Assembly (NCBI GenBank): GCA_016871535.1
Contig: VHCZ01000004.1
Span: forward strand, 13,801-77,800
Source: Verrucomicrobiota bacterium
Lineage (GTDB): Bacteria; Verrucomicrobiota; Verrucomicrobiia; Limisphaerales; SIBE01
Direction: 5' to 3'
Length of the DNA: 64,000 nt
The position numbers were made by a program, and so were the translations under genes. Below the pieces are notes generated by a model. It was given only the letters and a program-made list of their open reading frames with translations, ran no database searches and was not told the origin of the DNA. This document shows, piece after piece, positions 5,345-30,600 of the stretch (positions are counted from its first letter, which is position 1; every line of letters starts with the position of its first letter).

Positions 5345-6412
5345 TTAGCCCCCAATGCAGCTCATGCTGCGTTCGGGCTGCACGAAATCCGGCTCGCCAA
5401 TGTGATGGCGCGCTTCCTTTTGCCAGACGATCCCTCGAATCGCCTCTGCGATTTGCTCGTCCGCCGCGCCGCCGCGCAAAAGGCCTTTCACGTCGTGTTC
5501 GTGCAGACTGAACAAACAGGTCCGAATCTTGCCGTCGGCCGTCAGACGAATGCGGTTGCAGTGGCCGCAGAAAGGTTCCGTGACCGGGGCGATGATGCCA
5601 ACTTCGCCGCGTCCATCCTCGAAACGCCACCGCCGCGCGGTCTCGGAAGGATTGGCAGATGGAACCGGACGGAGCGTGAATTTCGCCTGCAGGCGGCCCA
5701 GGATCTCCCGTCCAGGAACAACCAGATCTTTGAGCCAAGCGCGCCCCGAATCCAACGGCATGAATTCAATGAACCGAAAACTGAGGTTCCGTTTTCGCGC
5801 CAGCTCCGCCAGGTTTTCGATCTCATGATCGTTGATGCCGCGAATGATCACGGCGTTCACTTTCACGGGATTCAACCCGATCTCTTGCGCGCGGGCGATC
5901 CCACTCAAGACTTCGCCCAGGCCGTCGCGCCCGGTGATTTTCTTGAAATTGTCTCGATCCAACGAATCGAGGCTAAAGCTGATTCGCCGGAGCCCGGCGG
6001 CTTGGAGCGCCCCGGCTTTCCGCAGGAAGAGAAAGCCGTTGGTGGTCATCGCCAAATCTTCAAGGCCCGAAATGCGGGCGAGCTTGCCGACCAGGATTTC
6101 CACCCCCTGCCGCAGCAACGGTTCGCCGCCCGTCAGGCGGACCTTTAGAATGCCCAGTTGGACTGCGAGCCGCACGAGCCGTTCGATCTCCTCGAAACTC
6201 AAGATTTCCGACCGCGGCTTCCAGTCCGGCAAACGCGAGGTCGGCGGATTGGGGTTGCGTTGCGGATCGAACTTGGTCCGGTAGAAATGGGCCGCTTCCT
6301 CGGTTTCCGGCAGGCAATAGAGGCAACGAAAATTACAGCGGTCGGTCAGGCTGACGCGCAGATCGCGCATCACGCGGCCGAAGGAATCCGAAAGCGCAGC
6401 CGGATGCGTCAT
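5345..6412 (-). CDS. moaA: GTP 3',8-cyclase (radical SAM, Moco biosynthesis)
   Basis: LRVSLTDRCNFRCLYCLPE (CxxxCxxC), VRLTGGEPLLR, C-terminal CGHCNRIRLTADGK and a terminal GG. Its ATG at 6412 overlaps the stop of the upstream gene (ATGA). Confidence 0.95.
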   Translation of the reverse strand: MTHPAALSDSFGRVMRDLRVSLTDRCNFRCLYCLPETEEAAHFYRTKFDPQRNPNPPTSRLPDWKPRSEILSFEEIERLVRLAVQLGILKVRLTGGEPLLRQGVEILVGKLARISGLEDLAMTTNGFLFLRKAGALQAAGLRRISFSLDSLDRDNFKKITGRDGLGEVLSGIARAQEIGLNPVKVNAVIIRGINDHEIENLAELARKRNLSFRFIEFMPLDSGRAWLKDLVVPGREILGRLQAKFTLRPVPSANPSETARRWRFEDGRGEVGIIAPVTEPFCGHCNRIRLTADGKIRTCLFSLHEHDVKGLLRGGAADEQIAEAIRGIVWQKEARHHIGEPDFVQPERSMSCIGG

Positions 6413-7967: not shown

Positions 7968-8401
7968 GCTCGACCGATCTGCCTGAGAAAGATGCTGCCC
8001 CGTTGAGCCAGGAGGAAATGACTTCGGCGCTTTTTGCGAACCTGGTGATTCAACAAACCAACATGGCGCTGATGTTCCTCGGACGCGTTCCCCATCCGGA
8101 AACGGGCGAAACCATCCAGGACATCGACTCCGCCCGGATGCTGATCGACCAGTTGGAAATGCTGGAGGTCAAAACCCGCGGGAATCTCAACAAGAACGAG
8201 GCCAGTCTGCTGAAACAAAGCCTGACTTCGCTGCGCATGTCGTTCGTCCAGGCCGTCGAGAATCCTCAACCGGCGCCTTCGACCGCCAAAGCCCAACCGC
8301 AATCTGAATCCGTCTGCGACGCCGCGGCTTCGGCATCCTCTCTTTCAACGCCCCCACCCGCCGACGAAGAATCCCGCAAAAAATTCACCAAGCGGTATTG
8401 A
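7964..8401 (+). CDS. DUF1844-like protein
   Basis: LFANLVIQQTNMALMFLGRVPHPETGE...DIDSARMLIDQLEMLEVKTRGNL fits the DUF1844 pattern as I recall it. ATGA overlap with the previous gene. Confidence 0.7.
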   Translation: MSSTDLPEKDAAPLSQEEMTSALFANLVIQQTNMALMFLGRVPHPETGETIQDIDSARMLIDQLEMLEVKTRGNLNKNEASLLKQSLTSLRMSFVQAVENPQPAPSTAKAQPQSESVCDAAASASSLSTPPPADEESRKKFTKRY

Positions 8402-8410
8402 AATGAACCC

Positions 8411-10906
8411 CTAAGGCGCGAAGAGAAACTCGCTGGTGTTCAAAAGCGTGTGACACAATTGGGGCAATGCTCTGGTTGCTGCTTCGCCGGGTGAGACATT
8501 TTCAATCTGAAAGCGCTCCGCGGTTTGCCGGAGCATTTGGCTGCACCACCGAAGTTCCTCGGTGTTGGGCGGCCGCGTCAGCGCCAGTTCAAACGCCAGC
8601 CGAATTCGATCCTCCGTCGACTGACTCGGCACGGCTCGCGACACTCGATCCGCGAAGTGCCCGGCTTGCTCCAGGACGAACGCATCATTCAGCATCGTGA
8701 GTGACTGCGAAACGACCGCGGCCGGAGAGCGCCGGATGCAACTCGTCGCGACGATCGGTTGGTCGAACGTGTTGAGGAGGGACAAATGATAATTCCGGCG
8801 CGCCAAAATGTAGAGGCTGCGCCGCCCCAAGTCTGAAGCTCGCGCGATCTGCTTCGCGTTGACCACGATCAAGCCGTCCGTCCGGCTCTCCAGCGGGATC
8901 GGCGCGCCGCCCACCGTGCGGTCAAGCTTGCCGCTCACGGCGAGGATGGCGTCGCGAATGATCTCCGATTCCAGCCGGCGCAATCTCTGGCGCCACAAGA
9001 GTCGATTCGAGGGATCTGAGCTCGGATTTTCAGACGCGGTCGCAGACTGGCGGTACACTGTGGAATTCATGATCAACCGGACGATCGGTTTGGTGCGCCA
9101 ACCTTGCCGGATCAATTCGGACGCCAGCCAGTCGAGGAGTTGCGGATGGGTCGGCCCGGAGCCGGAGAGGCCGAAGTTATCGCTGGTTTCGACGATGCCC
9201 TGACCGAAGAGGTGCTGCCAGATTCGATTCACCCAGACTCGAGCGACGAGCGTGCTGGCCGGGGAATCGGGATCGGTCAGCCAGCGGGCCAGCGCCAGCC
9301 GCCGTCCGCTGGAACCGGCGAGTAAATTGCGACTAGAGTCAACCGCTTGCCGGGGCAAGGCGCTTGTAGTCCCGCCTTTAGGCGGTCCGGGCCACGTAAA
9401 CGCGGGACTACGAGCCGCATGTTCGCGAAAAGGAACAAGCCCGCGTGCCTCAGAGCTGCTTGATTCAACTGCGGCACTTGCTTCCTCCGCGCACAGCACC
9501 GTGAGGAATCCCGGTTGCACCTCTTCGCCCGGTGTCTCGTGATTGCCGCGGCGCAAGAGATGGAACGGTGACGGCAACCCGGTGTCGTACACGGCTTGGA
9601 TGATTCCGTGTGTTCGACGCTGTTTCTGCAAGCCGGCGACCAGGCGGTCGAGATCGGCCAGTTCCGCAACTTCCTTCCCGCTCAGGGCCGCGGAGATTTC
9701 TTCGGACTTAACCTTGAGAGCAGCCTCGAATTTCCCGGCGAGGTACTTTTGGACTTCGCTGCGTTTCTCCGCCTCGGTTTCCAGCGCTTTCCGGACATCG
9801 TTCCGGATCGGTTCCGGGATCGAATTCAACCGGGCCTCAAAAAGCCGTTCTCGATGCGGGCGCCGGATTCCCTCCTGGCGTTCCTTCAGTTTTTGGACCT
9901 GCTGTTCGATCTCGCGGTTGTGCCGGTCGATGGCGGCCTTTTCGATTTTCGACACGTCCGGCAGGGCCCGTTGCTTCGGCTGGAGCCACGCCTGGGGATC
10001 AAAGGCCGGACTCAAGTTCGCGAGGAACGCGTAATACTCCCGCTGGGAGATCGGCTCGTATTTGTGGTCGTGACATTTGGCGCATTGCAGGGTCAGGGCG
10101 AGGAGGTTGTTGGCCAGGATCTCGCCGGTTCGTTGCAGCACGCCGTGGCGGATGTCCAGCGTGTTCAATTCGTTCTCGTCCGTGTCGTCGGACGCGGTGC
10201 GGAGAAAACCCGTGGCGACCAGCAGTTCCTTGAGGTCCGGAGTCAAATGCGCCGCCGAGCGCCAGTCGGCCAGTTCATCGCCGGCGAGTTGTTCCAGGAG
10301 GAAACGGTCGTACGGTTTGTCGGCATTGAAGGAGCGGACGGCGTAATCGCGGTAGAGCCATTTGCCTTCGCCGAGCTTGACCGTGCCGGCGTCGTTGTCG
10401 CCGCCGAGCACATCGACGTAGCCCGCCGCGTCCAGCCAGTGGCGGCCCCAGCGTTCTCCAAAGTGCGGCGAAGCGAGCAATTGATCGATCCATCGCGTTT
10501 CGGCATCGGGTCGCGGGTCGGTGAGGAAGGAATGGAGTTCTTCGGGCGAGGGCGGCAGACCAATCAGGTCCAGAGAAGCGCGCCGCAAGAAGGCCAGGCG
10601 ATCGGCGTCGGGAGAGAACGTGAGGCCGTTCTCTTCGAGAGACGCCAGCAGAAAGGAATCGACCGGCGTTCGCACCCGGTCAGAATTCTTCGTTCGTGGT
10701 AATTCCGGCCTGCTCAAAAGGCGGAACGCCCAGTGAATTGCTTTCGACTGGACAGATTCTTGGACCACGGATTTCACGGATTTCGCGGAACTAAAAGCTT
10801 TTTTATCCGTGTTATCCGTGTAATCCGTGGTTGCGGCGGGCAGGCCGGGAAGGGGCGCGAGCAAGGAGGCGCAACAGAGTTGGGCAACCAGTCCAAGCGT
10901 GTTCAT
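8411..10906 (-). CDS. PSCyt2 (DUF1549) / PSD1 (DUF1553) domain protein
   Basis: ATG at 10906 (MNTLGLVAQLCCASLLAPL signal). LRRASLDLIGLPPSPEE, SPHFGERWGRHWLDAAGY, CAKCHDHKYEPISQREYY, and a DUF1553-like C-terminal half. Confidence 0.9.
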   Translation of the reverse strand: MNTLGLVAQLCCASLLAPLPGLPAATTDYTDNTDKKAFSSAKSVKSVVQESVQSKAIHWAFRLLSRPELPRTKNSDRVRTPVDSFLLASLEENGLTFSPDADRLAFLRRASLDLIGLPPSPEELHSFLTDPRPDAETRWIDQLLASPHFGERWGRHWLDAAGYVDVLGGDNDAGTVKLGEGKWLYRDYAVRSFNADKPYDRFLLEQLAGDELADWRSAAHLTPDLKELLVATGFLRTASDDTDENELNTLDIRHGVLQRTGEILANNLLALTLQCAKCHDHKYEPISQREYYAFLANLSPAFDPQAWLQPKQRALPDVSKIEKAAIDRHNREIEQQVQKLKERQEGIRRPHRERLFEARLNSIPEPIRNDVRKALETEAEKRSEVQKYLAGKFEAALKVKSEEISAALSGKEVAELADLDRLVAGLQKQRRTHGIIQAVYDTGLPSPFHLLRRGNHETPGEEVQPGFLTVLCAEEASAAVESSSSEARGLVPFREHAARSPAFTWPGPPKGGTTSALPRQAVDSSRNLLAGSSGRRLALARWLTDPDSPASTLVARVWVNRIWQHLFGQGIVETSDNFGLSGSGPTHPQLLDWLASELIRQGWRTKPIVRLIMNSTVYRQSATASENPSSDPSNRLLWRQRLRRLESEIIRDAILAVSGKLDRTVGGAPIPLESRTDGLIVVNAKQIARASDLGRRSLYILARRNYHLSLLNTFDQPIVATSCIRRSPAAVVSQSLTMLNDAFVLEQAGHFADRVSRAVPSQSTEDRIRLAFELALTRPPNTEELRWCSQMLRQTAERFQIENVSPGEAATRALPQLCHTLLNTSEFLFAP
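9366..9411. repeat. RepG palindrome inside the CDS (GTAGTCCCGC...GCGGGACTAC)
   Basis: 10-bp terminal inverted repeat with an inner CCGCC-TTTA-GGCGG hairpin. Translated in frame as ...TWPGPPKGGTTS... Confidence 0.55.
10763..10832. repeat. RepD element (9-mer based, CCACGGATTTCACGGATTT / ATCCGTGTAATCCGTGG) in the 5' end of the CDS
   Basis: Inverted arms built of 9-nt units, translated as TTDYTDNTDKKAFSSAKSVKSVV. Copies also at 19034 and 63301. Confidence 0.7.
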
Positions 10907-17996: not shown

Positions 17997-20900
17997 ATGA
18001 AGCCAAACGATGATTTCTCGTGTGGATCGGAAGCGACAGATCGCCAGGCGCATTCGGGAGTCAATACTAACGCCGGGTTTCGCGTTCTTCGGATCGTCCG
18101 TGGTTTCCTGGCAGCTTCCCTTGCCCCGTTAGCGCTGGCCGCCATTGCCGGTGGCGCCTTCGCGCAATCGGAGATTCCCGTCACGCCTCAATTTTTCGAC
18201 AAGAGCATCCGTCCTTTGCTGGGCGAGTTCTGCCTGAGCTGCCACTCCACCGAGAAGCAGAAGGGCGAACTCGACCTCGAACGGTTTGCGTCGCTCGACG
18301 AGGTGAAGCGGCATCCGAAAGTCTGGCAACGCGTCGCCGAGCAGCTTGCGGACAATGAGATGCCGCCGAAAGACAAGCCGCAGCCAACCCCGGCGCAACG
18401 CGAACGATTGTCTCATTGGGTGCGAGCTGTGCTTGATGACATCGCACGCTCGCGCGCGGGCGATCCGGGCCCCGTGGTGCTGCGCCGGCTTTCCAACGGA
18501 GAATACAGTTACACGATCCGCGATTTGACGGGCGTCGATTCGCTGGATCCGGCGCGCGAGTTCCCCGTCGATGGCGCGGCGGGCGAAGGTTTCATGAACA
18601 CCGGCAATTCGCTCGTGATGTCTCCGGCGTTGCTCAGGAAGTATCTGGACGCCGGCAAAGAGATTACGGGCCACGCCGTGTTGTTGCCGGACGGGATTCG
18701 GTTTTCGCCCAAGACCACACGGCGCGATTGGACGGAGGAGATCCTCGCGCAGATTCGCGAGTTCTATGCTGAGTTCACAGACACGCGAGGCGGCTCGTCC
18801 GTCAATTTGCAGGGAATCAAGTTCAACACCAACGAAGGCGGGCGTCTGCCTCTGGACAAATATCTGGAGGCGACATTTGAACTCAGGGCAGCGCTTTTAT
18901 CGGATGCGTCCTTTCCCCTCACCCCGGCCTCCCCCAGGGAGAGGGAGTTGGGCGGGGCAGTTTCTCTAAATCCGAACGCCGCCGGCCGTATCCCTGCCCG
19001 GGAGAAGACTCACCCTCCCCACGAACCCTATTCAACCACGGATTACACGGATCAATCCGCTCCTCCATCCGCGAAATCCGCGAAATCCGTGGTTAAAGAA
19101 TCGGTTCAGGGGTTCAAGATGCGAAACGCTTCGGAGAATTCTCTCCCTGAGGGAGAGGGCCGGGGTGAGGGGGAACGGAGCGCCAAAGCAGAAGCAGGCT
19201 TGACCTCGTCAGTCGCCGCCAAACGCGGTTTAAGCGCCAAGTATCTTCGTGACCTTTGGGTCACCTTGAATGACAGGCAATCTTCGCTGCTGCTTGACCC
19301 GCTTCGTGCGCGCTGGCGCGAAGCCAAACCGGGCAGCGCAGCGGCCCTGGCCTCTGAGTTCGCCCGGTGGCAAAACGTGCTCTGGAGATTCGCCAGCGTC
19401 GGCCACATCGGGAAAGCGGGCGGCCCCAAAGCCTGGATGGAACCAGTCAACCCGCTCACGGCGAAAGAGGAAATTCGGATCAAGATTCCCACCGTCACGA
19501 ACCGCAATGAAGTCACGCTCTATCTGGTCGCGGCCGATGCCGGCGATGGGAACGACCATGATTTCGTGGTCTGGGAACAGCCGCGGCTGGTCGCGCCTGG
19601 ACGGCCGAACTTGCTGCTCCGCGACGTGCGCGAGGTCAGCCGCGAACTGGCCCAGCAACGGGAACGAGTGTTTGCCAGCGCCGCGAAATGTCTGATGGCT
19701 GCGGCGGAAGTCAGCGGCACGGCGACAAAGTTCGACGTCTCGGAGTTGGCGAGCCGGCATGGCGTCGCGGCCGACGTGCTGGGGGCCTGGCTCGATTTCC
19801 TGGGCCTCGGTTCACCCGGCGCAGCGAAGATCGATTCCTACTTCACGAACACCATCGCAAGCTCCGCGGGTTACGACTTCGTCAAAGGCTGGGGCAGCCA
19901 CAGCACGCCGCTCCTGGTGGCCAATTCTTCGGATCAACACGTGCGAATTCCGGGCAACATGAAACCGCGCAGCGTGGCCGTGCATCCGTCCCCGAAGTTG
20001 CAGGCCGCAGTCGGCTGGCGCAGTCCAGTCGCCACATCCTTGCGCGTGGAAGGAAAAGTGACGCACGCGCATCCGGAGTGCGGCAACGGCGTCACGTGGT
20101 CGCTGGAACTGCGTCGCGGCAGCACGCGGCAGCGGCTCGTCAGTGGCTTCGCTCAAGGCAGCAAAGAAGGCAAAGTTGGCCCGATTGAGAGAATCGCGGT
20201 GCAGACCGGCGATCTTGTGTCCTTGTTGATCGGCCCGCGCGATGGAAATCACTCCTGCGACCTGACGGGGATCGACTTGTCCCTTTCTCCGACCGGGGAA
20301 GGCGGGCGTGAATGGAACCTGGCGCGCGATGTGTCGGATGACGTGACCGCGGGCAACCCGCACGCCGACCGTTTCGGCAATGAGGGGATCTGGCACTTCT
20401 ACACCGAGCCTGATCAGGGCGGCAACGAGTTGGGACCGGTGATTCCCGCCGGTTCTTTGCTGGCGCGTTGGCAATCTTCGGAGCGCACGGAGGAAAAGCA
20501 GAAGTTAGCCGAGGACTTACAGCGCTTGCTCACCTCCGGACCGCCGGAGAGCAAGGACAGTCCGGATGCGGCGCTTTATCGACAATTGGCTTCCCTGAGT
20601 GGGCCACTGTTCAGCGGGATAATCCGGGGAACTGCAAACTCGGCGAGCACTTCGGCTTCCACGAAAACGGATGCGCCCTTCCGCCTCACTCCAGCCCTCT
20701 CCCCAGGGGCCCCAGGGGAGAGGGAGAAGCGCAGGCCGGCTTCCAACAATCCAGACCCGTCCAGCCCTGCCACATCGCGGAACACGACACTCCCTCTCCC
20801 AGCGGGAGAGGGCCGGGGTGAGCGGGAACGCAGCCAAAAATCCGAAATCCGAAATCCGAAATCCGAAATCGAGAACGGCGAATGGTCTCTCGCTCCAGCG

Positions 20901-22817
20901 TTCTTTGGCCGCCACCCCAACGGCCAATCCATCGACTCCGCGAGCCTTTGCCTCCAGGCGCCTTCAGTCCTTGAGATTCGCTTGCCGGCTGATCTTGTCG
21001 AAGGCTGCGAATTTGTAACCACGGGAAGACTTCATTCCGATACGGGCGCGGAAGGCAGCGTTCAACTGCAGGCGCTCACGATGAAACCCGAGCGCGAATT
21101 GGGTTTGCTGCCGAGCGAGCTGACCGTGGCGCAAGTCAACGGCATGTGGACGTCGAATAACCGGCGGACTTCCCACGCCACGCCCATCGTCGTCAACGAA
21201 GGCAGCCAGGCGCGCCGCCGCATCGAAGCGGATTTCAACGCGTTCCGCACAATCTTCCCTGCGGCGCTTTGCTACACGAAGATCGTGCCCGTGGATGAAG
21301 TCGTGACGCTCACGCTTTTTTATCGCGAGGACGAACACTTGCGCCGGTTGATGCTCGACGACGCGCAGACCGCGAAGCTCAATGGGCTCTGGGACGACTT
21401 GCACTACGTGAGCCACGACGCGCTCACGCTCGTGGACGCCTTCGAACAACTCTGGCAATACGCGACGCAGGACGCCGACCCGAAAGTCTTCGAGCCGCTC
21501 CGCAAGCCCATCCAGGACCGCGCCGCCGCCTTCCGCCAGTTGCTCCTCGAAACGCAGCCGAAGCACGTCGAAGCCGTGATCGAGTTCGCCGACCGCGCGT
21601 ATCGCCGTCCATTGGCGGAAACGGAGAAATCCGAATTGCGCGCTCTCTACCAGAAGTTGCGCGAGCAGGAGTTGCCCCACGAGGAAGCGGTTCGTCTCAC
21701 GCTGGCGCGTGTGCTCGTCTCGCCGGCTTTCTTGTATCGATTGGAGAAGCCTGGCCCCGGCGTGGAACCGTCGCCGGTTTCAGATTGGGAATTGGCCAGC
21801 CGGCTCAGCTATTTTCTCTGGTCCACGATGCCGGATGCGGAATTGCGCCAGGTGGCCGCGGCCGGCCGCTTACGCGATCCGGACGTGCTGGCGGCGCAAG
21901 CCCGGCGCATGTTGCGGGACCCGCGCGCGCGCAGGCTGGCCACGGAGTTCGCCTGCCAATGGCTGCACGTTTACGCGTTCGATGAATTGGACGAAAAGAG
22001 CGAACGGCATTTCCCGACGTTCGCCGATTTGCGCGGCGCAATGTATGAAGAGCCAATCCAGTTCTTCACGGATTTGTTCCAGCGCAACGGCTCCGTCCTG
22101 GACATCCTGGACGCCGATTACACTTTTTTGAACGAGGCCCTGGCCCGGCACTACGAAATTCCCGGCGTGATGGGCGCGGACTGGCGGCGCGTGGAAGGCG
22201 TGAAGAAATTCTCGCGCGGCGGCATTCTCGGACTTTCCGCGACGCTGGCGAAACAATCCGGCGCCTCGCGCACCAGCCCAATCTTGCGCGGCAACTGGCT
22301 CGTGGAAGTGTTGCTCGGCGAAAAACTCCCGCGCCCGCCCAAAGAAGTGCCGCGTCTGCCGGAAGACGAAACCGCCACGGAAGGTTTGACCGTGAGGCAA
22401 CTTGTCGAGAAGCACACCTCCGATCCGAATTGTCTTCGCTGCCACGCGCGCATCGACCCGTACGGCTACGCGCTCGAAAGTTTCGACGCCATCGGCCGCC
22501 GCCGCGAGAAGGACCTGGGGGATCGCCCCATCGACACCCGTGTAAAAGCGATGGATGGTGCGGAGTTCAACGGCATCGATGGCTTGCGCCAGTATTTGTT
22601 GACCCAGCGCCGCGATGCCTTTCTCCGACAATTCTGCCGGAAACTGCTCGGCTACGCGCTGGGGCGCGGCGTGCAGTTGTCAGACGAACCGTTGCTCACG
22701 GAAATCCAGGCGCGTTTGAAATCAAACGATTATCGGATTGTCATGGCCGTCGAGTCGATCGTCCGGAGCCGGCAATTCCGAGAGATTCGAGGCCGCGAAT
22801 TCACGGCGGAGGAGTGA
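17997..22817 (+). CDS. Giant DUF1592/DUF1595/DUF1587/DUF1588/DUF1585-family protein (PSD/PSCyt modules)
   Basis: ATG at 17997 with a signal peptide. CLSCHSTEKQKGELDL, RRLSNGEYSYTIRDLTG, VLVSPAFLYRLE, SRLSYFLWSTMPD, FACQWLHV, SPILRGNWLVEVLLG, CLRCHARIDPYGYALESFD. Confidence 0.9.
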   Translation: MKPNDDFSCGSEATDRQAHSGVNTNAGFRVLRIVRGFLAASLAPLALAAIAGGAFAQSEIPVTPQFFDKSIRPLLGEFCLSCHSTEKQKGELDLERFASLDEVKRHPKVWQRVAEQLADNEMPPKDKPQPTPAQRERLSHWVRAVLDDIARSRAGDPGPVVLRRLSNGEYSYTIRDLTGVDSLDPAREFPVDGAAGEGFMNTGNSLVMSPALLRKYLDAGKEITGHAVLLPDGIRFSPKTTRRDWTEEILAQIREFYAEFTDTRGGSSVNLQGIKFNTNEGGRLPLDKYLEATFELRAALLSDASFPLTPASPRERELGGAVSLNPNAAGRIPAREKTHPPHEPYSTTDYTDQSAPPSAKSAKSVVKESVQGFKMRNASENSLPEGEGRGEGERSAKAEAGLTSSVAAKRGLSAKYLRDLWVTLNDRQSSLLLDPLRARWREAKPGSAAALASEFARWQNVLWRFASVGHIGKAGGPKAWMEPVNPLTAKEEIRIKIPTVTNRNEVTLYLVAADAGDGNDHDFVVWEQPRLVAPGRPNLLLRDVREVSRELAQQRERVFASAAKCLMAAAEVSGTATKFDVSELASRHGVAADVLGAWLDFLGLGSPGAAKIDSYFTNTIASSAGYDFVKGWGSHSTPLLVANSSDQHVRIPGNMKPRSVAVHPSPKLQAAVGWRSPVATSLRVEGKVTHAHPECGNGVTWSLELRRGSTRQRLVSGFAQGSKEGKVGPIERIAVQTGDLVSLLIGPRDGNHSCDLTGIDLSLSPTGEGGREWNLARDVSDDVTAGNPHADRFGNEGIWHFYTEPDQGGNELGPVIPAGSLLARWQSSERTEEKQKLAEDLQRLLTSGPPESKDSPDAALYRQLASLSGPLFSGIIRGTANSASTSASTKTDAPFRLTPALSPGAPGEREKRRPASNNPDPSSPATSRNTTLPLPAGEGRGERERSQKSEIRNPKSEIENGEWSLAPAFFGRHPNGQSIDSASLCLQAPSVLEIRLPADLVEGCEFVTTGRLHSDTGAEGSVQLQALTMKPERELGLLPSELTVAQVNGMWTSNNRRTSHATPIVVNEGSQARRRIEADFNAFRTIFPAALCYTKIVPVDEVVTLTLFYREDEHLRRLMLDDAQTAKLNGLWDDLHYVSHDALTLVDAFEQLWQYATQDADPKVFEPLRKPIQDRAAAFRQLLLETQPKHVEAVIEFADRAYRRPLAETEKSELRALYQKLREQELPHEEAVRLTLARVLVSPAFLYRLEKPGPGVEPSPVSDWELASRLSYFLWSTMPDAELRQVAAAGRLRDPDVLAAQARRMLRDPRARRLATEFACQWLHVYAFDELDEKSERHFPTFADLRGAMYEEPIQFFTDLFQRNGSVLDILDADYTFLNEALARHYEIPGVMGADWRRVEGVKKFSRGGILGLSATLAKQSGASRTSPILRGNWLVEVLLGEKLPRPPKEVPRLPEDETATEGLTVRQLVEKHTSDPNCLRCHARIDPYGYALESFDAIGRRREKDLGDRPIDTRVKAMDGAEFNGIDGLRQYLLTQRRDAFLRQFCRKLLGYALGRGVQLSDEPLLTEIQARLKSNDYRIVMAVESIVRSRQFREIRGREFTAEE
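18915..19173. repeat. Composite in-CDS insertion: RepA arms (18915-18947 / 19141-19173) enclosing RepD (19034-19094)
   Basis: CCCCTCACCCCGGCCTCCCCCAGGGAGAGGGAG ... CTCTCCCTGAGGGAGAGGGCCGGGGTGAGGGGG, with AACCACGGATTACACGGAT..ATCCGCGAAATCCGTGGTT in between. Confidence 0.7.
20684..20826. repeat. RepA inverted pair inside the CDS
   Basis: CCTCACTCCAGCCCTCTCCCCAGGGGCCCCAGGGGAGAGGGAG ... TCCCTCTCCCAGCGGGAGAGGGCCGGGGTGAGCGGG. Confidence 0.65.
20838..20872. repeat. Heptamer tandem repeat (AAATCCG x4 plus AAATCGA) inside the CDS
   Basis: Read directly. Translated as KSEIRNPKSEIE. Confidence 0.8.
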
Positions 22818-22840
22818 ATTCGGAGCCCGCAGGGCGTTTT

Positions 22841-23257
22841 TCATCTGCGCGCAGGTTCAATCTCGAACTGCCGTCGGGAGCGGTGGAAGCAAACATCGAA
22901 CTCTTCGAAGAAATTCACCTGCCCCAACAGCAAGGGTACATTTTCGGAGCGGGTACACGCGAAGACGAGCGACACCAGTGGGAAGTTACTCACCTGCGCT
23001 TCGACCAGCAAGGCGCGCGCCTCCTGCGCGGCTAGGTTTCCTGCAAGCGTTACGCGGGTCGTTTGGGCTTCCCACACCGCGCCAAGCCGCACGCCAAGTC
23101 CGTACGGGAGCACGTTGACCGTCGCACCAGAGTCGAGCAGTCCGTGGACCTGCATCGGTTCATTGTCCTTGAATCGCAGTTGCAGCGGCACAACCGGCAT
23201 GAGCGCGGCATCGCCACGCCCTGAAGCAATCGGCAGGTAGGCAAAGCGGGCAGCCAT
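22841..23257 (-). CDS. Retropepsin-like (clan AA) single-domain aspartyl protease
   Basis: 138 aa. VHGLLDSGATVNVL carries the D-S-G-A catalytic triplet. The C-terminal PLLLGQVNFFEEF resembles the hydrophobic-hydrophobic-Gly motif of retropepsins. Confidence 0.8.
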   Translation of the reverse strand: MAARFAYLPIASGRGDAALMPVVPLQLRFKDNEPMQVHGLLDSGATVNVLPYGLGVRLGAVWEAQTTRVTLAGNLAAQEARALLVEAQVSNFPLVSLVFACTRSENVPLLLGQVNFFEEFDVCFHRSRRQFEIEPARR

Positions 23258-23260
23258 GAC

Positions 23261-23467
23261 TCAGTTGAGTTGCGTTTCGTCGCGTAGGTATTGAGTCAGG
23301 GTAGCGGCAGCGTCGTGCGCCTCAAAGGGGGACCATACGGGATACTCCGAGCCTTGCAGCAGGCCTCCTTCAGCCTGCGCCAGTTCCGTAGTCAGGAATT
23401 GAACCGCTCGATATTTGTCGGCGCGGGGCAGCTTGTGAAGAACGGGAAGAAGTTCGTCGAGTTTCAT
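23261..23467 (-). CDS. Small (68 aa) partner ORF of the protease, antitoxin-like
   Basis: Its stop at 23261-23263 lies 3 nt upstream of the protease ATG at 23257. Helical, acidic C-terminus. The ...EYPVWSPFEAHDAAATL... motif resembles small ORFs that I recall next to toxin-like genes in cyanobacteria. Confidence 0.55.
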   Translation of the reverse strand: MKLDELLPVLHKLPRADKYRAVQFLTTELAQAEGGLLQGSEYPVWSPFEAHDAAATLTQYLRDETQLN

Positions 23468-23619
23468 GCTCGTAAGTTTAAGGAATCAACGACTTTTTGC
23501 CGATTATCTTCGCCAGTGCGCCAGCGCGCTCAAATATAAATCAAGCGTTTCAAGGTCCTCGAAAAACTTGCGGCCCACCTGCGTCGGGAGCATTATTAAG
23601 CGAGCACCAAATTACGCTT

Positions 23620-24924
23620 ATGACCACACACCAATTCTCCCGTCGCACGTTTCTCCGCGGGGTCGGCGTCACCATGGCGCTGCCCTGGCTGGAATCGCTC
23701 AACGTCTGGGGCGACACGCCCACGGTGACCAGGCCCGCCAGCGAGGCCCCCGTGCGCTTGGCAGTCCTTTTCGCTGGGAACGGATTTCACAGCAAGGAAT
23801 GGTGGGCAAAGGGCGAAGGCAAGAACATGGAACTGGGCAAGGTCCTCGCGCCGCTCACTGACTTCCGCGAAAAGATGCTCTTCATCCGCGGCCTCTACAA
23901 TGCCGAGGCCCTCAAGGGCAACATCCACAGTTCCCAGACGGGGAATCTGCTTTCCGGCGCGCCGCTGGCCTCGGGCGGCGAGATTCGATCCGGCACCAGC
24001 ATCGATCAATTGCTGGCGCAGCGTTACGGGCACTCGACCAAAGTGCCGAGCCTCGTGCTCGGTTGCGAGAAATCGAATCCGTCCGTGCACAAAAACTATT
24101 CGATGCTTTACAGTTCGCACATCTCGTGGACCTCGCCGACTACGCCGACGCCGCTGGAGATTTATCCTGCGCTCGCCTTTGACCGGCTCTTCAAGGACGA
24201 GGCGCAACGCGGCGACAAAAGCGTGCTCGACGCGGTTCTCGCTGACGCGAACGACCTCCGGCGCCACATCAGCACCACGGACCGGCGCAAGCTCGACGAA
24301 TACCTCGACTCCGTTCGCGACGTGGAGCAACGCATCGAGCAAGCCGGCCAGAAGGGCGAGTTGCAGGGCTGGCGCCCGACGCTGGCGCAGCCGAACATCC
24401 CGCGCCCGCCGGACGGCATCCCGCAGGACATCGGCGAGCACATGCGCTTGATGTGCGACATTCTGGTGCTCGCGTTCCAGACCGACACGACGCGCATTTG
24501 CACGCTCAAGTTGAACAACGACCATTCTTCGTTGCGCTTCCCGAACCTCGGTGTGGATTACATGATTCACCATCTGCTCTCGCACTCGGACACCTCGGAC
24601 TGGCTGAAGGTGAACCAGTTTTTCCTGGAGCAAGTCGCGTACATCGCGCGCAAGCTCGACGCCATTCAAGAAAGCGAACGCACGGCGCTCGACAATACGA
24701 TGCTCCTCTTCCTGTCGAGCATGCTGACCGGCAGCCATGACGCGACGCAGTTACCGGTCGTGATGCTGGGAGGCGCGGGCGGCCGCGTCAAAGGCGGCCG
24801 CGTGCTGGATTTCAAAGAGAAACCGGAGCGCCAGATGTGCCGCCTTTATCTTTCGATGATGGACAAGATGGACGTGCGCCTCGGCAAGTTCGGCGACGCG
24901 CCGGAACCGCTGGCTGAGGTGTAA
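23620..24924 (+). CDS. DUF1552 domain protein (Tat signal)
   Basis: ATG at 23620. SRRTFLRGVGVTMALPWLESL. Typical partner of DUF1592-family genes. DRRKLDEYLDSVRDVEQRI motif. Confidence 0.9.
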   Translation: MTTHQFSRRTFLRGVGVTMALPWLESLNVWGDTPTVTRPASEAPVRLAVLFAGNGFHSKEWWAKGEGKNMELGKVLAPLTDFREKMLFIRGLYNAEALKGNIHSSQTGNLLSGAPLASGGEIRSGTSIDQLLAQRYGHSTKVPSLVLGCEKSNPSVHKNYSMLYSSHISWTSPTTPTPLEIYPALAFDRLFKDEAQRGDKSVLDAVLADANDLRRHISTTDRRKLDEYLDSVRDVEQRIEQAGQKGELQGWRPTLAQPNIPRPPDGIPQDIGEHMRLMCDILVLAFQTDTTRICTLKLNNDHSSLRFPNLGVDYMIHHLLSHSDTSDWLKVNQFFLEQVAYIARKLDAIQESERTALDNTMLLFLSSMLTGSHDATQLPVVMLGGAGGRVKGGRVLDFKEKPERQMCRLYLSMMDKMDVRLGKFGDAPEPLAEV

Positions 24925-25393
24925 GAGCATAGCAGCGTATTGAAGAAGTACGACCGAGGGTGGGCGCATTCTGGTCGCAGCCAAAGCTGACTACGCGGGG
25001 AAGAAGCCCGGCGCCAAGAAATGCAAGAAAAGTCCCGCGAGTTCGTCCAGAAAGGCGCTGACAAAGCAGGGCGTGAAAGCGGCCGAAGCGACAATTTCTT
25101 GCGGCGCTTGCTCCTGAACCCTGGTAAAACGTTCGGCAAATGAACGACTACGAGTTCACGAAGATCGCAGTGGCTGTCTTGAACCAAATCGTTCGCTCGT
25201 TCACGGCGAAGAGGCACAAGGAATCGCTCCGAGGAGCGGCTAAGAAAAGAGATAGGTGCATCCCGTTCCGCCGCGAACCTATGCAACTCCAAGCGAAGTT
25301 TCGGCAATACAGGAAGATGCTTGCCAAGAAGACCTCACGTAACTCGAAATGGCATGAAGGCGAAAGAATCAAGGAACAACATCGGCCGAACGC

Positions 25394-26761
25394 ATGGCAG
25401 AATCGCTGAAATATCCACCGGGACAGGGAGCCGATAACGTGTTGCTGCGTCTTCGCGAAGATTACGAGCAAGCGGTTCTCGACTTGTTTGAGTCGGACGA
25501 CGCCGATGAAGTTCGTCCCGCGCTAGAAGTAGTTGGGCACACATCCAACTTTCTCGACAACTTGCGGCTTCCGATTCACCGTTGGTTTCGCTACAGTGCG
25601 GGCTTTTCGGCGGAGTGGGTGAAGTGGTTGCTGGCCGAACGAAAGGGCCAAGAACTGCGGGTGCTCGACCCGTTCGTCGGTTCGGGCACGACGTGTCTCG
25701 CATGTGACGAGATGGGCGTCGAATCTTACGGGTTGGAGGCGCATCCATTTGTTCATCGCGTCGCCAGGGCCAAACTTGCTTACACCGCCGACCCGGAGCG
25801 GTTTCTAGCCAAGGCGGATCGCGTGTTTCGGTTCGCCAGAACGGCGCAGGCTGCAAACGATTACCCGGAACTCATCCAAAAATGTTTCGGTCCTGAGACG
25901 CTCGATTTTCTGGATCGCTTCCGTCAGGCCGTTGAAAAGGAACAGGATGGCACGCGCGAAGCGGAGTTGCTTTGGATGGCTTTAGTGTCAGCCTTGCGCG
26001 TCACGTCCGAAGCGGGTACGGCGCCGTGGCAATACGTGTTGCCGGGCCGACGCAAGACGGCGCCTCCGTCTCCTGAAACCGCGCTGCACAACGCAGTCCT
26101 GACGATTGCGAGTGACATCCGTTTTATGGCGCGTCGGGCCAAGCCGTTGGCGAAATTGCATGCGGACGACGCGCGAACGTGCGGGACTGTTCCGGGTGGC
26201 TGGGCCACGCTCGTCATTACGTCACCGCCTTACGCGAACAACTACGATTACGCCGACGCGACGCGGCTAGAGATGGCGTTCATGGGCGAGATTCGTGGGT
26301 GGGGCGATCTACAGGAGGCGGTGAGAAGACATCTGATCCGCGCCTGCTCGCAGCACGTACCGCCGAACTCAGTGAATCTGGACAACGTGCTGGCGTCGCC
26401 GGAACTTGCACCCATCCGTGATGAGATTGTGCCGGTCTGCGGCGAGCTCTCGGCGGTACGGCTGGAGCGGGGCGGCAAGAAGACCTACAACAACATGATC
26501 GCCTGCTACTTCCTCGACTTGGCCCAGGTGTGGCGGGCGCTGCGCCGCGTGTGCGCATCACCGTGTGAGGTTTGCTTCGTGATTGGCGATTCTGCGCCTT
26601 ATGGCGTTTACGTGCCGGTCATCGATTGGCTCGGCAAGCTCGCGCAGGCTGCGGGATTTGAGTCGTGGACCTTCCGGAAACTCCGAGACCGAAATACCAA
26701 GTGGAAGAATCGCAAACATCGCGTGCCGCTGTGCGAAGGTCATCTGTGGCTTCGCGGTTGA
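25394..26761 (+). CDS. DNA methyltransferase (N4-C or N6-A), alpha-type motif order
   Basis: Motif I VLDPFVGSGTT (about aa 93) and motif IV ITSPPY (about aa 275), separated by about 180 aa. Confidence 0.85.
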   Translation: MAESLKYPPGQGADNVLLRLREDYEQAVLDLFESDDADEVRPALEVVGHTSNFLDNLRLPIHRWFRYSAGFSAEWVKWLLAERKGQELRVLDPFVGSGTTCLACDEMGVESYGLEAHPFVHRVARAKLAYTADPERFLAKADRVFRFARTAQAANDYPELIQKCFGPETLDFLDRFRQAVEKEQDGTREAELLWMALVSALRVTSEAGTAPWQYVLPGRRKTAPPSPETALHNAVLTIASDIRFMARRAKPLAKLHADDARTCGTVPGGWATLVITSPPYANNYDYADATRLEMAFMGEIRGWGDLQEAVRRHLIRACSQHVPPNSVNLDNVLASPELAPIRDEIVPVCGELSAVRLERGGKKTYNNMIACYFLDLAQVWRALRRVCASPCEVCFVIGDSAPYGVYVPVIDWLGKLAQAAGFESWTFRKLRDRNTKWKNRKHRVPLCEGHLWLRG

Positions 26762-26764
26762 CCT

Positions 26765-27667
26765 ATGGCTGAATCCTACGCTCATCGGTGGGGACAAATC
26801 ATCGGTGACGTCTTCGAGCAGTTTGTTCGCCACATGCTCAGGAGCATCGCGGATAAGCACGGACTATATCTCGACTTCAAGAAGCCGCGGCGCGCGAGGG
26901 CGAAGCAAGGCGGCAGAGACTTGTCAAAAGTGATGTGGCGGGATTCTTACGGCAATCGTCACGACTTGGACTACGTGCTTGAGCGAGGCGGGACAGAAGA
27001 TGAGCTCGGTGTTCCCGTTGCATTCATCGAATCCGCGTGGCGCAGATACACCAAGCATTCCAAGAACAAGGTCCAGGAAATAGAAGCCGCAGTCTTGCCG
27101 ATCGCGCTGACCTTCGCACGTAGTCAGCCGTTCTGCGGCGCGGTGCCCTCGGGCGAGTTCACGCGCAATGCGCTGGCGCAGCTTGAATCGAAAGGTTTCT
27201 CCGTCCTTCACATCCCGTACGAATCCATCATCGAGGCGTTCCAGCAGATTGGAATTGACGCTTCATCCGTGGACCGCGTGACGAGTGAGGAGGAATTTCA
27301 GCGGAAGATCGCGCAATGGGAGGAACTGCCGCAGTCAGAGTCAATAGACAAGTTTTTGAAGTCGCTTTACCGGCTGCACGCCGCTGGCGTGGCGGGGTTT
27401 CAATCGCAGCTGGAAGCATCACTGCTTCGCGGTGTCGTCTCGGTGCGTTTAGCTGTTCTACGAGGTCAGACTGTCGAGTGCTCCGACATCAAGAGCGCCA
27501 TTTCTTACCTGATCGAAGAAGAGAAGGCCTACCGGTTGGGAGAAGAAGCCGAACAGCGCGAGATGTTTGAGATTCTCGTTCGTTTCAACAATGGGGCGAA
27601 GATCGAAGCCACATTCCCCACGCGACAGGAAGCTATTGCCTTCCTCAGAACTTTTGAGAAGGCATGA
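26765..27667 (+). CDS. Candidate cognate restriction endonuclease (unclassified)
   Basis: Starts 3 nt after the methyltransferase stop. HDLDYVLERG...VAFIESAWRRYTKHSKNK is a possible PD-(D/E)xK-like core. No confident family match. Confidence 0.55.
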   Translation: MAESYAHRWGQIIGDVFEQFVRHMLRSIADKHGLYLDFKKPRRARAKQGGRDLSKVMWRDSYGNRHDLDYVLERGGTEDELGVPVAFIESAWRRYTKHSKNKVQEIEAAVLPIALTFARSQPFCGAVPSGEFTRNALAQLESKGFSVLHIPYESIIEAFQQIGIDASSVDRVTSEEEFQRKIAQWEELPQSESIDKFLKSLYRLHAAGVAGFQSQLEASLLRGVVSVRLAVLRGQTVECSDIKSAISYLIEEEKAYRLGEEAEQREMFEILVRFNNGAKIEATFPTRQEAIAFLRTFEKA

Positions 27668-30600
27668 AGATCCTCCGTCTGACCTGGATCGCGGTCCAGG
27701 GTGATATTTACCGGCTCGGTTTTGTGTCGCTCGAAAGATCAATCCAGATTGCGCTGGTGAGTCTGTTTGCGACGAGCCTCTCACCTCTCGCCGCGGAGTC
27801 AAACGCCCAGCCTCATTGGGCCTTCCAGCCCATCGAAAATCCGTCCGCCCCCGTTGTGAAAAACATTACGTGGCCGCGCACGGCTATTGACCGATTCACT
27901 CTCGCCAAACTCGAAGAGCACGGACTGCACCCGGCTTCGCCCGCTGACAAACGCACCTTGCTTCGACGCGCGACCTTCGACCTCATAGGACTTCCGCCAA
28001 GACCCGACGAAGTCGATGCCTTTTTGGCGGACAAATCATCGGACGCATTCGCCAGAGTCATCGAGCGGTTGCTGGCGTCGCCCCGCTACGGCGAGCGTTG
28101 GGGGCGGCACTGGCTGGACGTCGCGCGTTACGCCGACTCGAATGGCATGGACGAAAACCTCGCTTACGCCAGCGCCTGGCGATATCGCGATTATGTGATC
28201 GCCGCCTTCAACACCGACAAACCTTACGACCAGTTCATCCTGGAGCAACTCGCGGGAGACCTCCTTCCGCCGGCGGGCGCCACCCGGGATTACGAGCGGA
28301 TCATCGCCACCGGTTTTCTGACCATCGGTCCCAAGATGCTCGCCGAGGACGACCCGGTCAAAATGGAGATGGACATCGTCGACGAACAACTGGACACCGC
28401 CAGCCGCGCGTTCATGGGCCTGACCGTCGGCTGCGCGCGGTGCCACGATCACAAGTATGATCCGGTGCCGGCCAGGGACTACTACGCGTTGGCCGGCATC
28501 TTCAAGAGCACGCACACGATGGATAACTTCAAGGTCGTCGCGCGCTGGCAGGAACGCCCGCTCGGCCGACCGGAGGAAATCGAGCGGCTCGCGGCGCATC
28601 GCAAACGGATCGACGAGCAGCAGCGGCGCGTCAACGGGTTGATTGCCGAAGCCAATACGCAGTTGCTCCGCGAAGCCCGGTCGCGCGCGGCCGAGTATCT
28701 GCTTGCTGCGACCGAACCGCGTTTACGGGAGCAAAGGACTAAAGTGACGAATGAAAGCACTCCGGGCGCATCCACCAACGCGGCGCTCGGGCCGGAGTTC
28801 TTGAAGCAATGGGCGGCGTATTTGGAAAAGACGGAGAAGGACACCAACTCCGCACTGAAGCTGTGGCATGAATGGGTCGCGCGAGCGCAAGCGGAGCGCT
28901 CGGGAGAGTCGAAGTCGCCTGGGGTTGGCGACGCTCACCTCCCCCTCACCCCGGCCCTCTCCCTTGGGGAGAGGGAGAAAGGCATTCTGTCCTCGACTCC
29001 GGCTCAAACCACTCCCGGTCCGTCACTTCTTTCCTCGCAAGCGGGGAAAAGCGAGAAACTCCCGGAATCAACAGATACCCGATCTGCAGCCGACGGTGAC
29101 TCCCTCTCCCCAAGGGAGAGGGCCGGGGTGAGGGGGAACGGAGCGTACCAATCACCCTGCGCGCAGGCTCTTTTCGGAGAGACCCCTCCACGCTCGCTTG
29201 CAGAACTGGCCCAACGTTACGGCGAACAATTCGCTCAGGCTGATCGGGCGTGGCAGCAACTGAAGTCTTCCACGAACGGCGCGAAGGCGGACAAACTCTC
29301 AGATCCGGTGCAGGAGTCCTTCCGGCAGATTCTCTATGCCCCCAAAGGGCCGTTCGAGCTGCCGAAGAATGCGGAGAGCGGTTTCACGACCAATCAGGCG
29401 GCCGAACTCAAAGAGGCTCGCGCGGCGTTGAAATCCTTCGAACAAAGCTTGCCCGTGTTGCCCGAAGCCATGGCGGTCTCGGATGGCGCCGTGCAAAACC
29501 TTCGCGTGCACATTCGGGGCAGTTATTTGAGCCAGGGCGATTTGGCGCCGCGCGGTTTTCTCTCTTCCATCCGCGCGCCGACCGGTCCGGCGATCTCCAC
29601 GAACGACAGCGGACGCCTCCATCTCGCCAAATGGCTGACCGACCCCGATCATCCGCTAACCGCGCGGATCATGGTGAACCGCATCTGGCACGGACATTTC
29701 GGCGAGGGTCTGGTGCGGTCACCGGACAACTTCGGCACACTGGGCGAAAAGCCGACGCATCCGGAGTTGCTCGACTGGCTGGCGCGCTGGTTCGTCGAAT
29801 CCGGCTGGAGTGTAAAGGCGATGCATCGGCTCGTCATGAATTCGGCGGTGTACCAGCAAGCGGGGCAAGGGGGAGTGGTCAGTGGTCAGTGGCCGGTGGC
29901 CAGTGATCAGTATTTAGTGATCAGTAATCGGTATTCAGTCAGTCGGTCCGCACCGGCTCAGCCGGCTGATCACTGGAAACTGAATACTGATTACTCACGC
30001 ACAACCGGGATTGATTGGCGCTCACTGAATACTGATCACGGGTTACTGAATGGGGATTACCCCCGTCGCCTCGCGACGCTCGACCCCGAAAACCGACTTC
30101 TCAGCCATTTCCCACGCCGCCGCCTTGAAGCCGAAGCGATTCGAGACTCTATTCTCTACGTCAGCGGCGGTCTGGACTTGAAAATGGGTGGGTCGCTCTT
30201 GACGGTCTCGAATCGCGCGTACGTCACCAGCACTGCCAGCAAGCTTGACAGCGCACTCTTCGTTCAGCCACTCCGTTCAGTTTATTTGCCTGTGATTCGC
30301 AGCGCGCTCTACAACGTTTTCCAGATTTTCGACTTTGCCGATCCGAGCACGCTCAACGGCCATCGCGATCAGACGACGGTCGCGCCGCAGGCGCTGTTCA
30401 TGATGAACAGCAAACTGGTCGCCGACGCTTCCCGGCGGCTGGCTGATACGTTGCTGGCGTATTCCGCCGGTGAAGGTGGGACGAGCGTCCTCGCGAGCCA
30501 ATCGCCATCGACGCATGGCTCGGCAGGAGCCTCGCTCCACCAACCTTTACCAAGGGATTACTTGCTGGCCGGGAATTTACGCGACGATTCGGCGCGGCTG

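Follow-up and report, generated by a model that had tools for sequence, protein, structure and literature searches.

What kind of element is formed by two very short genes, one of them encoding a putative protease of retroviral type, that lie side by side between two genes which are direct neighbours in related bacteria? The question is raised by a cassette found in a 64,000-nucleotide (nt) stretch of DNA (hereafter the window) from a Verrucomicrobiota bacterium of the SIBE01 lineage (GenBank assembly GCA_016871535.1, contig VHCZ01000004.1, positions 13,801 to 77,800 of the forward strand), in which an open reading frame (ORF) of 68 amino acids (aa) precedes that of a predicted 138-aa aspartic protease. 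The cassette is a new member of PDC-M52, a candidate phage-defence family already catalogued in PADLOC, and its novelty is therefore moderate. Its pairing, coupling and co-divergence, the empty site in close relatives, the variable contexts and the plasmid, duplicate and decayed copies together support a toxin-antitoxin (TA)-like, possibly abortive-infection, module in which the small partner would restrain a dimeric protease, a reading to which a rough probability of 0.5 is given.

Two coupled genes of the PDC-M52 family

The two ORFs, as read from the sequence, and the DNA that accompanies them are located in the window as follows:

22841 to 23257, minus strand: ORF of the protease, 138 aa
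23261 to 23467, minus strand: ORF of the small protein, 68 aa, with its TGA stop codon at 23261 to 23263
22818 to 23588, no strand: whole insert, about 770 nt, delimited by comparison with close relatives
23468 to 23588, minus strand: non-coding region upstream of the small ORF, about 120 nt, part of the insert and absent from the relatives with an empty site

Both ORFs share one frame, with 3 nt (23258 to 23260) between the stop codon of the first and the ATG of the second. These coordinates and strands, as well as the sequence motifs, the 3-nt gap and the flanking distances of 23 nt and about 150 nt (152 nt exactly), agree with those given in a preliminary description of the locus. That account had also regarded a retropepsin-fold protease as uncharacterised in the role of effector of such a module; the novelty is smaller than it supposed, as the pair is already present in PADLOC-DB v2. 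The PDC-M52B profile (PDLC04692) matches the protease with an E value of 4.3e-44 (residues 3-136 on profile positions 5-137 of 139), and the PDC-M52A profile (PDLC04691) matches the small protein with an E value of 6.2e-10 (residues 1-40 on positions 1-40 of 86); the order A then B, the strand and the adjacency of PDC-M52 are all found in the window. PDC-M52, which occurs 55 times in RefSeq, corresponds to CAS_00170 (FAM_01284>>FAM_00696; Payne et al., bioRxiv 10.1101/2024.01.29.577857, Table S8), and was predicted as a phage-defence candidate from its embedding in BREX, DISARM or type I restriction-modification (RM) loci (bioRxiv 10.1101/2024.01.29.577857).

Conservation of the pair was evaluated at 80 loci, taken from one genome per species, by searching their six-frame ORFs with a profile of the small protein. 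According to this hidden Markov model (HMM), a homolog of the small protein lies directly upstream of the protease and on the same strand in 76 of the 80 loci. One of the four exceptions is located at a contig end, and in the remaining three the partner position is taken by an ORF of 67-84 aa. Since one of these matches the PDC-M52A profile, 77 of the 79 testable loci are paired (76 by HMM and one more by the PADLOC profile), and the preliminary description's expectation of a small ORF kept beside homologous proteases is thereby borne out. In nearly all of the 77 gene pairs the spacing between partner and protease is -14, -8, -4, -1 or +1 to +3 nt, that is, the genes overlap or lie 1-3 nt apart, which points to translational coupling. 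The two proteins also co-diverge: their pairwise identities vary together (Mantel r = 0.73, a value reached in 0 of 1000 permutations), and divergence is faster in the partner (mean identity of 42%) than in the protease (52%). The two proteins occur naturally joined in P0338 (187 aa), where residues 1-64 of the partner are cleanly fused, in frame, to a protease that lacks approximately its first 12 residues. Another fused protein, P0423, was apparently generated by a frameshift.

Databases hold 498 homologs of the protease and 65 of the small protein, nearly all of them of about 138 and 68 aa, respectively, and an exhaustive profile search at E <= 1e-10 recovered 547 protease clusters (50% identity), nearly all of which are stand-alone proteins of about 130-145 aa. 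Comparison of close homologs gives median dN/dS values of 0.15 (protease) and 0.17 (small ORF). Given these homologs, the conserved lengths and the low dN/dS values, the two ORFs are real genes and not chance products of GC-rich DNA.

A predicted retropepsin and its acidic partner

Four short segments of the two ORFs, all on the minus strand, are of particular relevance to function:

23123 to 23134, minus strand: codons of the catalytic motif D42-S-G-A, within LLDSGATV of the protease
22907 to 22933, minus strand: codons of LLLGQVNFF, residues 109-117 of the protease
22955 to 22957, minus strand: codon of Cys101 of the protease, a position held by Trp in 99% of 78 homologs
23327 to 23344, minus strand: codons of Y42-P-V-W-S-P47 of the small protein, the conserved Y-x-[VIL]-W-[ST]-P motif, in the coil linker of the model

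From its motif and modelled fold, the 138-aa protein can be assigned to the stand-alone retropepsin-like aspartic proteases. In 78 diverse homologs Asp42, G55, W62, G73, G112 and N115 are invariant, P108 is conserved in 100% and G44 in 96%, and LLLGQVNFF is, judging from its residues, the counterpart of the hydrophobic-Gly-Arg/Gln-Asp/Asn motif of retropepsins. The AlphaFold2 model (predicted local distance difference test score, pLDDT, 93.2; predicted template modelling score, pTM, 0.85) retrieved with Foldseek only retropepsins, APRc or Ddi1 as top matches in the PDB, including the HTLV-1 protease (E 4e-5), APRc of Rickettsia conorii (template modelling, TM, scores of 0.67/0.69 over 136 columns) and the retroviral-protease-like (RVP) domain of Ddi1; matches in the viral structure library BFVD agree with this fold. 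The assignment rests on motif and predicted fold because the Pfam Asp_protease_2 match (E 7e-5), at 23.9 bits, lies just below the gathering cut-off of 24.3 bits; a precomputed PF13650 match is carried by several close homologs. The retropepsin fold proposed in the preliminary description is thus recovered in the model.

Retropepsins contribute one catalytic Asp per chain and are active only as homodimers. As the protease likewise has a single catalytic Asp per chain, a homodimer would be needed for activity. No signal peptide or membrane segment is visible in its sequence.

Stand-alone retropepsin-like proteins are also encoded by an uncultured siphovirus and by crAss-like phages (BFVD entries A0A8S5LJK9, A0A8S5QUR9 and A0A7M1RY13); these resemble the protease in size and fold (TM up to 0.66), with an identity of just 12-17%.

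A fold and a motif typical of retroviral proteases could indicate the remnant of a retroelement (gag-pro), and a pair of short ORFs in GC-rich DNA could be fortuitous. Both possibilities were rejected on the basis of conservation, context and the lack of reverse transcriptase and integrase genes, and are considered exceedingly improbable: neither of these genes nor a repeat resembling a long terminal repeat occurs nearby, identity to viral proteases is just 12-22%, both ORFs are under purifying selection and have hundreds of bacterial homologs, and a search of 50,697 phage records gave no sequence match to the cassette, its likeness to phage proteins being confined to the fold.

The small protein is hydrophilic and acidic, with an isoelectric point (pI) of 4.89 in the window copy and a family median of 4.57. 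Its AlphaFold2 model (pLDDT 76.7, pTM 0.40) has no compact fold and consists of helices at residues 3-12 and 15-32, an extended coil linker at 33-46 and a further helix at 47-67. The Y-x-[VIL]-W-[ST]-P motif is the most conserved feature outside the helices, Y42 being present in 73, W45 in 68, S46 in 68 and P47 in 77 of 80 diverse homologs. No match to the small protein was found among PDB chains, either by sequence or by Foldseek, it belongs to no Pfam or NCBIfam family, its Pfam matches being at the level of noise, and neither cassette protein matches a known TA family profile; the sole hint of an antitoxin is an Unstab_antitox match (E 0.045) in 2 of 18 members of the small-protein family.

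The linker motif is open to more than one interpretation. Tyr-Pro is the classic scissile pair of retropepsins, and an aromatic residue followed by Pro constitutes their type-1 cleavage site, which the aromatic-Pro pair of the verrucomicrobial clade resembles. The small protein could be a latent pro-peptide that the protease cuts within the Y-x-V-W-S-P linker to free a toxic or signalling fragment, in parallel with the small pro-peptides Pepco and EACC1, which are activated by defence proteases. The strict pairing of the protease with a small protein that bears a conserved motif in an exposed coil would suit such a role, for which modules of a protease and an effector with small pro-peptides offer a precedent (PMC12642450). 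However, the small protein is acidic and hydrophilic and shows none of the amphipathic or transmembrane character of a pore former, and it evolves faster than the protease. Also, the protease lacks a sensor domain, whether fused to it or adjacent, the known modules use serine or cysteine proteases, and the gene order and coupling of the cassette match an antitoxin-first layout. The release of a pro-peptide is thus regarded as rather improbable.

An intergenic insertion with a patchy distribution

The left neighbour of the cassette is a giant gene of the DUF1592 family (about 1,600 aa, plus strand; Pfam domains PSCyt1, PSD3, PSD5, PSD4 (DUF1592), PSCyt3 and PSD2), whose stop, at 22817, is 23 nt from the 3' end of the cassette. 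On the right lies a DUF1552 gene (PF07586, E 1e-89; HXXSHH), also on the plus strand, with its ATG at 23620, 152 nt from that of the small ORF; its product bears a twin-arginine-like leader. Relatives in which DUF1552 is 93-94% identical keep the order giant PSD gene, DUF1552, PSCyt2/PSD1 and DUF1501, and homologs of either cassette protein are absent from the four that were compared (L092, L094, L095 and L100). Three of these (L092, L094 and L095) have only 25-26 nt between the giant gene and DUF1552. By blastn, window positions 19141-22815 correspond to 4332-7973 of L092 and positions 23619-24924 to 8000-9305; synteny breaks exactly past the stop of the giant gene (22817) and resumes at 23619, and in the junction alignments the ancestral spacer, about 26 nt long, can still be made out at 23589-23619. 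Because close relatives show this empty site, the cassette is interpreted as an insertion of about 770 nt (22818-23588), in which the two genes are accompanied by 23 nt on their downstream side and about 120 nt on their upstream side. The small insertion proposed in the preliminary description is in this way supported, and the arrangement in the window is not the ancestral one. In the fourth relative, L100, an unrelated element, some 220 nt long (5727-5946), takes up the same spacer and contains internal inverted repeats (CACTAAT... / ...ATTAGTG), suggesting that the spacer may be a place where insertions land repeatedly.

Neither a target-site duplication nor terminal inverted repeats were found at the ends of the insert, and among the closest cassette loci no DNA is conserved outside the two ORFs, the upstream region included. 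This upstream region (23468-23588) is presumed to hold the promoter of the cassette; neither a sigma-70-like promoter nor a convincing operator repeat was found in it, and the sole promoter-like match sits within the neighbouring giant gene. The locus occurs in lake-water DNA metagenomes only, and no RNA runs contain it. Contigs from four of these metagenomes pass straight through the cassette without a deletion joint; at the contig level, the cassette is fixed in the source population.

The 80 loci belong to Verrucomicrobiota, Chloroflexota, Cyanobacteria, Planctomycetota, Acidobacteriota, Omnitrophota, Methylomirabilota, Armatimonadota, Bacteroidota and Myxococcota, a patchy distribution over some ten phyla. 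The genes that flank the cassette in the window are shared by none of the 80 other loci, and two further contexts, a microcompartment/aldolase/Ldh cluster and an MFS/PQQ neighbourhood, are likewise unrelated. Three cyanobacterial plasmids carry the pair, which in pP880101 of Rippkaea orientalis is located between insertion sequence elements and adjoins HicAB and ParA. Tandem double cassettes occur in Planktothrix and Caldilineaceae genomes (L053, 5775-7208; L058, 2964-6396), four loci (L032, L037, L054 and L077) retain frameshifted remnants, and truncated copies occur as well. L027 is a further locus with a tandem, frameshifted or truncated copy. Verrucomicrobia-like cassettes on contigs of metagenome-assembled genomes labelled 'Akkermansia muciniphila', 'Klebsiella sp.' and 'Klebsiella pneumoniae' (L015, L017 and L021) probably reflect mis-binning or mislabelling.

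An accessory pair without any role in addiction or defence, in which a niche protease and its dedicated substrate, adaptor or chaperone spread horizontally, has to be weighed against this distribution. Processing of a regulator, as in SpoIIGA/pro-sigma-E or ImmA/ImmR-type pairs, would be an example. The frameshifted copies show that the cassette can be lost without obvious cost, the RefSeq labels of the plasmid pair are just 'aspartyl protease family protein' and 'hypothetical protein', the neighbours show no enrichment of defence islands, and a toxic or defensive role is a prediction. On the other hand, the context is fully variable, with no conserved third gene or pathway, the cassette has inserted between genes at a site that is empty in close relatives, a plasmid copy stands beside HicAB and ParA, tandem duplication has occurred, and the family was picked up from its embedding in BREX, DISARM or type I RM loci. 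As variable context, insertion, plasmid carriage, duplication and defence-locus embedding are hallmarks of selfish or defence modules, such a module is preferred over a housekeeping function, and a benign pair is considered unlikely.

One gene away from the cassette, a second insertion of about 2.8 kb (approximately 24925-27721) separates DUF1552 from the PSCyt2/PSD1 gene, at a site where the spacer measures 84 nt in L092 and 84-134 nt across close relatives. It carries a type II RM pair:

25394 to 26761, plus strand: type II methyltransferase (PADLOC MTase_II, E 6e-130)
26765 to 27667, plus strand: type II restriction endonuclease (PADLOC REase_II, E 3e-57)

Two defence-type elements have thus landed in neighbouring spacers of the window. 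The window also contains seven copies of a palindromic repeat, CCTCTCCC-NNN-GGGAGAGG, versus 0.03 expected by chance:

19140, 20793, 28956, 29103, 42748, 42832 and 55181: copies of CCTCTCCC-NNN-GGGAGAGG

Four of these copies fall within the coding sequences of the giant PSD and PSCyt2/PSD1 genes, apparently read through in frame, and short related repeats are present in L092 as well.

Proposed mechanism and relation to known systems

In the TA-like reading, the two-gene operon would be a self-contained, horizontally acquired PDC-M52 element that has landed in the spacer between the giant gene and DUF1552. Its downstream gene would encode a cytoplasmic retropepsin-like protease, active as a homodimer, and the translationally coupled upstream gene an acidic and largely unstructured partner that binds and restrains it, plausibly by laying the Y-x-V-W-S-P linker in the substrate cleft or else by blocking dimerisation. 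Loss or displacement of the partner, following loss of the plasmid or element, stress or phage infection, would free the protease, which would then cleave cellular or phage proteins and arrest growth. The cleft-binding idea derives from the position of the conserved aromatic-rich motif in an extended segment, the conformation that aspartic-protease clefts bind. For the cassette we infer, and only infer, dimerisation, protease activity, physical binding, inhibition, toxicity and an anti-phage effect; the acidity of the partner, its non-compact model, the conserved coil motif and the natural fusion P0338 are among the points in favour of a TA-like arrangement. The co-divergence of the two proteins and this fusion lend indirect support to a neutralisation of the protease by direct binding. 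A more specific version, in which PDC-M52 is a true TA or abortive-infection system with a retropepsin-like toxin, and a pseudosubstrate partner threads its linker through the cleft of the dimer and is processed by the protease upon activation, is put forward tentatively. Retropepsin-like aspartic proteases are not known to serve as TA toxins or defence effectors, and nothing relevant on toxins of the retropepsin or aspartyl-protease type came out of literature searches covering TA and defence systems.

Several observations weigh against this interpretation. PDC-M52 is one of 145 untested candidates, and its defensive role is a prediction only (bioRxiv 10.1101/2024.01.29.577857); it is not mentioned in the literature text that was searched, which reports no experiment on any member, and a later study that tested some PADLOC candidates did not have PDC-M52 among them. 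Searches of Pfam, NCBIfam, PDB and Foldseek found no DNA-binding or known antitoxin domain in the small protein. Pro43, present in only 35 of 80 homologs, is not conserved beyond the verrucomicrobial clade, and a strict reading of the motif as a Tyr-Pro retroviral cleavage site is weakened accordingly. The Cys101 substitution may leave the window copy attenuated or altered in activity, to judge from the near-constant Trp of its homologs; it is not a sequencing error, since the identical protein is found on 22 contigs. Trp101 is present, for example, in the protease of the Rippkaea orientalis pair WP_012593022/WP_012593021. Finally, at 78 loci the 147 immediate neighbours, mostly housekeeping genes, represent 153 Pfam families, with neither defence-island enrichment nor a coherent PADLOC signal, and TA-type neighbours are only scattered (Uma2 four times, XisH twice, BrnT/BrnA twice). 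Because its neighbours are so diverse, the module appears to be a solitary, scattered element in the manner of classical chromosomal TA loci rather than a regular resident of defence islands. The TA- or defence-like module suggested in the preliminary description is consequently upheld as to pairing, mobility and insertion, but finds no counterpart in clear defence-island enrichment or in a known antitoxin or DNA-binding domain of the partner.

Should the cassette prove toxic or defensive, retroviral-type aspartic proteases would join the effectors of bacterial TA and immune systems, and a natural protein inhibitor, or a self-processing switch, of the retropepsin fold would be at hand. The family is large (the 547 clusters), its pairing is strict, and it is widespread in Cyanobacteria, Chloroflexota, Planctomycetota and Verrucomicrobiota, phyla that are poorly covered by defence screens centred on Escherichia coli. 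The window provides a clean natural example, and its exact empty site in sister genomes and the second defence-type insertion one gene away make the cassette a good construct for testing; it remains a worthwhile experimental target.

Among known proteins, APRc (PDB 5c9f/5c9b) and the RVP domain of Ddi1 have the same fold as the protease, a similar size and a single D-[ST]-G-A motif per chain, with sequence identities of only 11-15%. APRc constitutes the soluble part of a protein embedded in the membrane and is not known to have a small co-transcribed partner, whereas the window protease has no visible signal or membrane segment and belongs to a family that is nearly always paired. Protease-effector modules such as those with Pepco/Trypco, EACC1, MBL or alpha/beta-hydrolase effectors (PMC12642450) share with the cassette a protease gene tightly linked to a small non-enzymatic protein and a possible site-specific cleavage. 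They consist of serine or cysteine proteases fused to sensors and of pore-forming effectors (PMC12642450), whereas the cassette has a bare 138-aa aspartic protease devoid of extra domains and an acidic, hydrophilic partner. With type II TA systems (HicAB, BrnTA and RelE/ParE with Unstab_antitox-type partners) the cassette shares a small, acidic, partly disordered upstream partner, gene coupling or overlap, a patchy spread over many phyla, plasmid and chromosomal copies, duplicates, decayed copies and insertion into intergenic spacers; it differs in that its putative toxin is an aspartic protease, not a nuclease, kinase or acetyltransferase, and in that its partner has no recognised DNA-binding domain and neither protein a known TA family match. 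From PDC-M52 as catalogued no structural difference could be detected, and the distinction is one of setting: whereas the catalogued members are embedded in BREX, DISARM or type I RM loci, the window cassette is flanked by two genes of planctomycete type and has a type II RM system one gene off.

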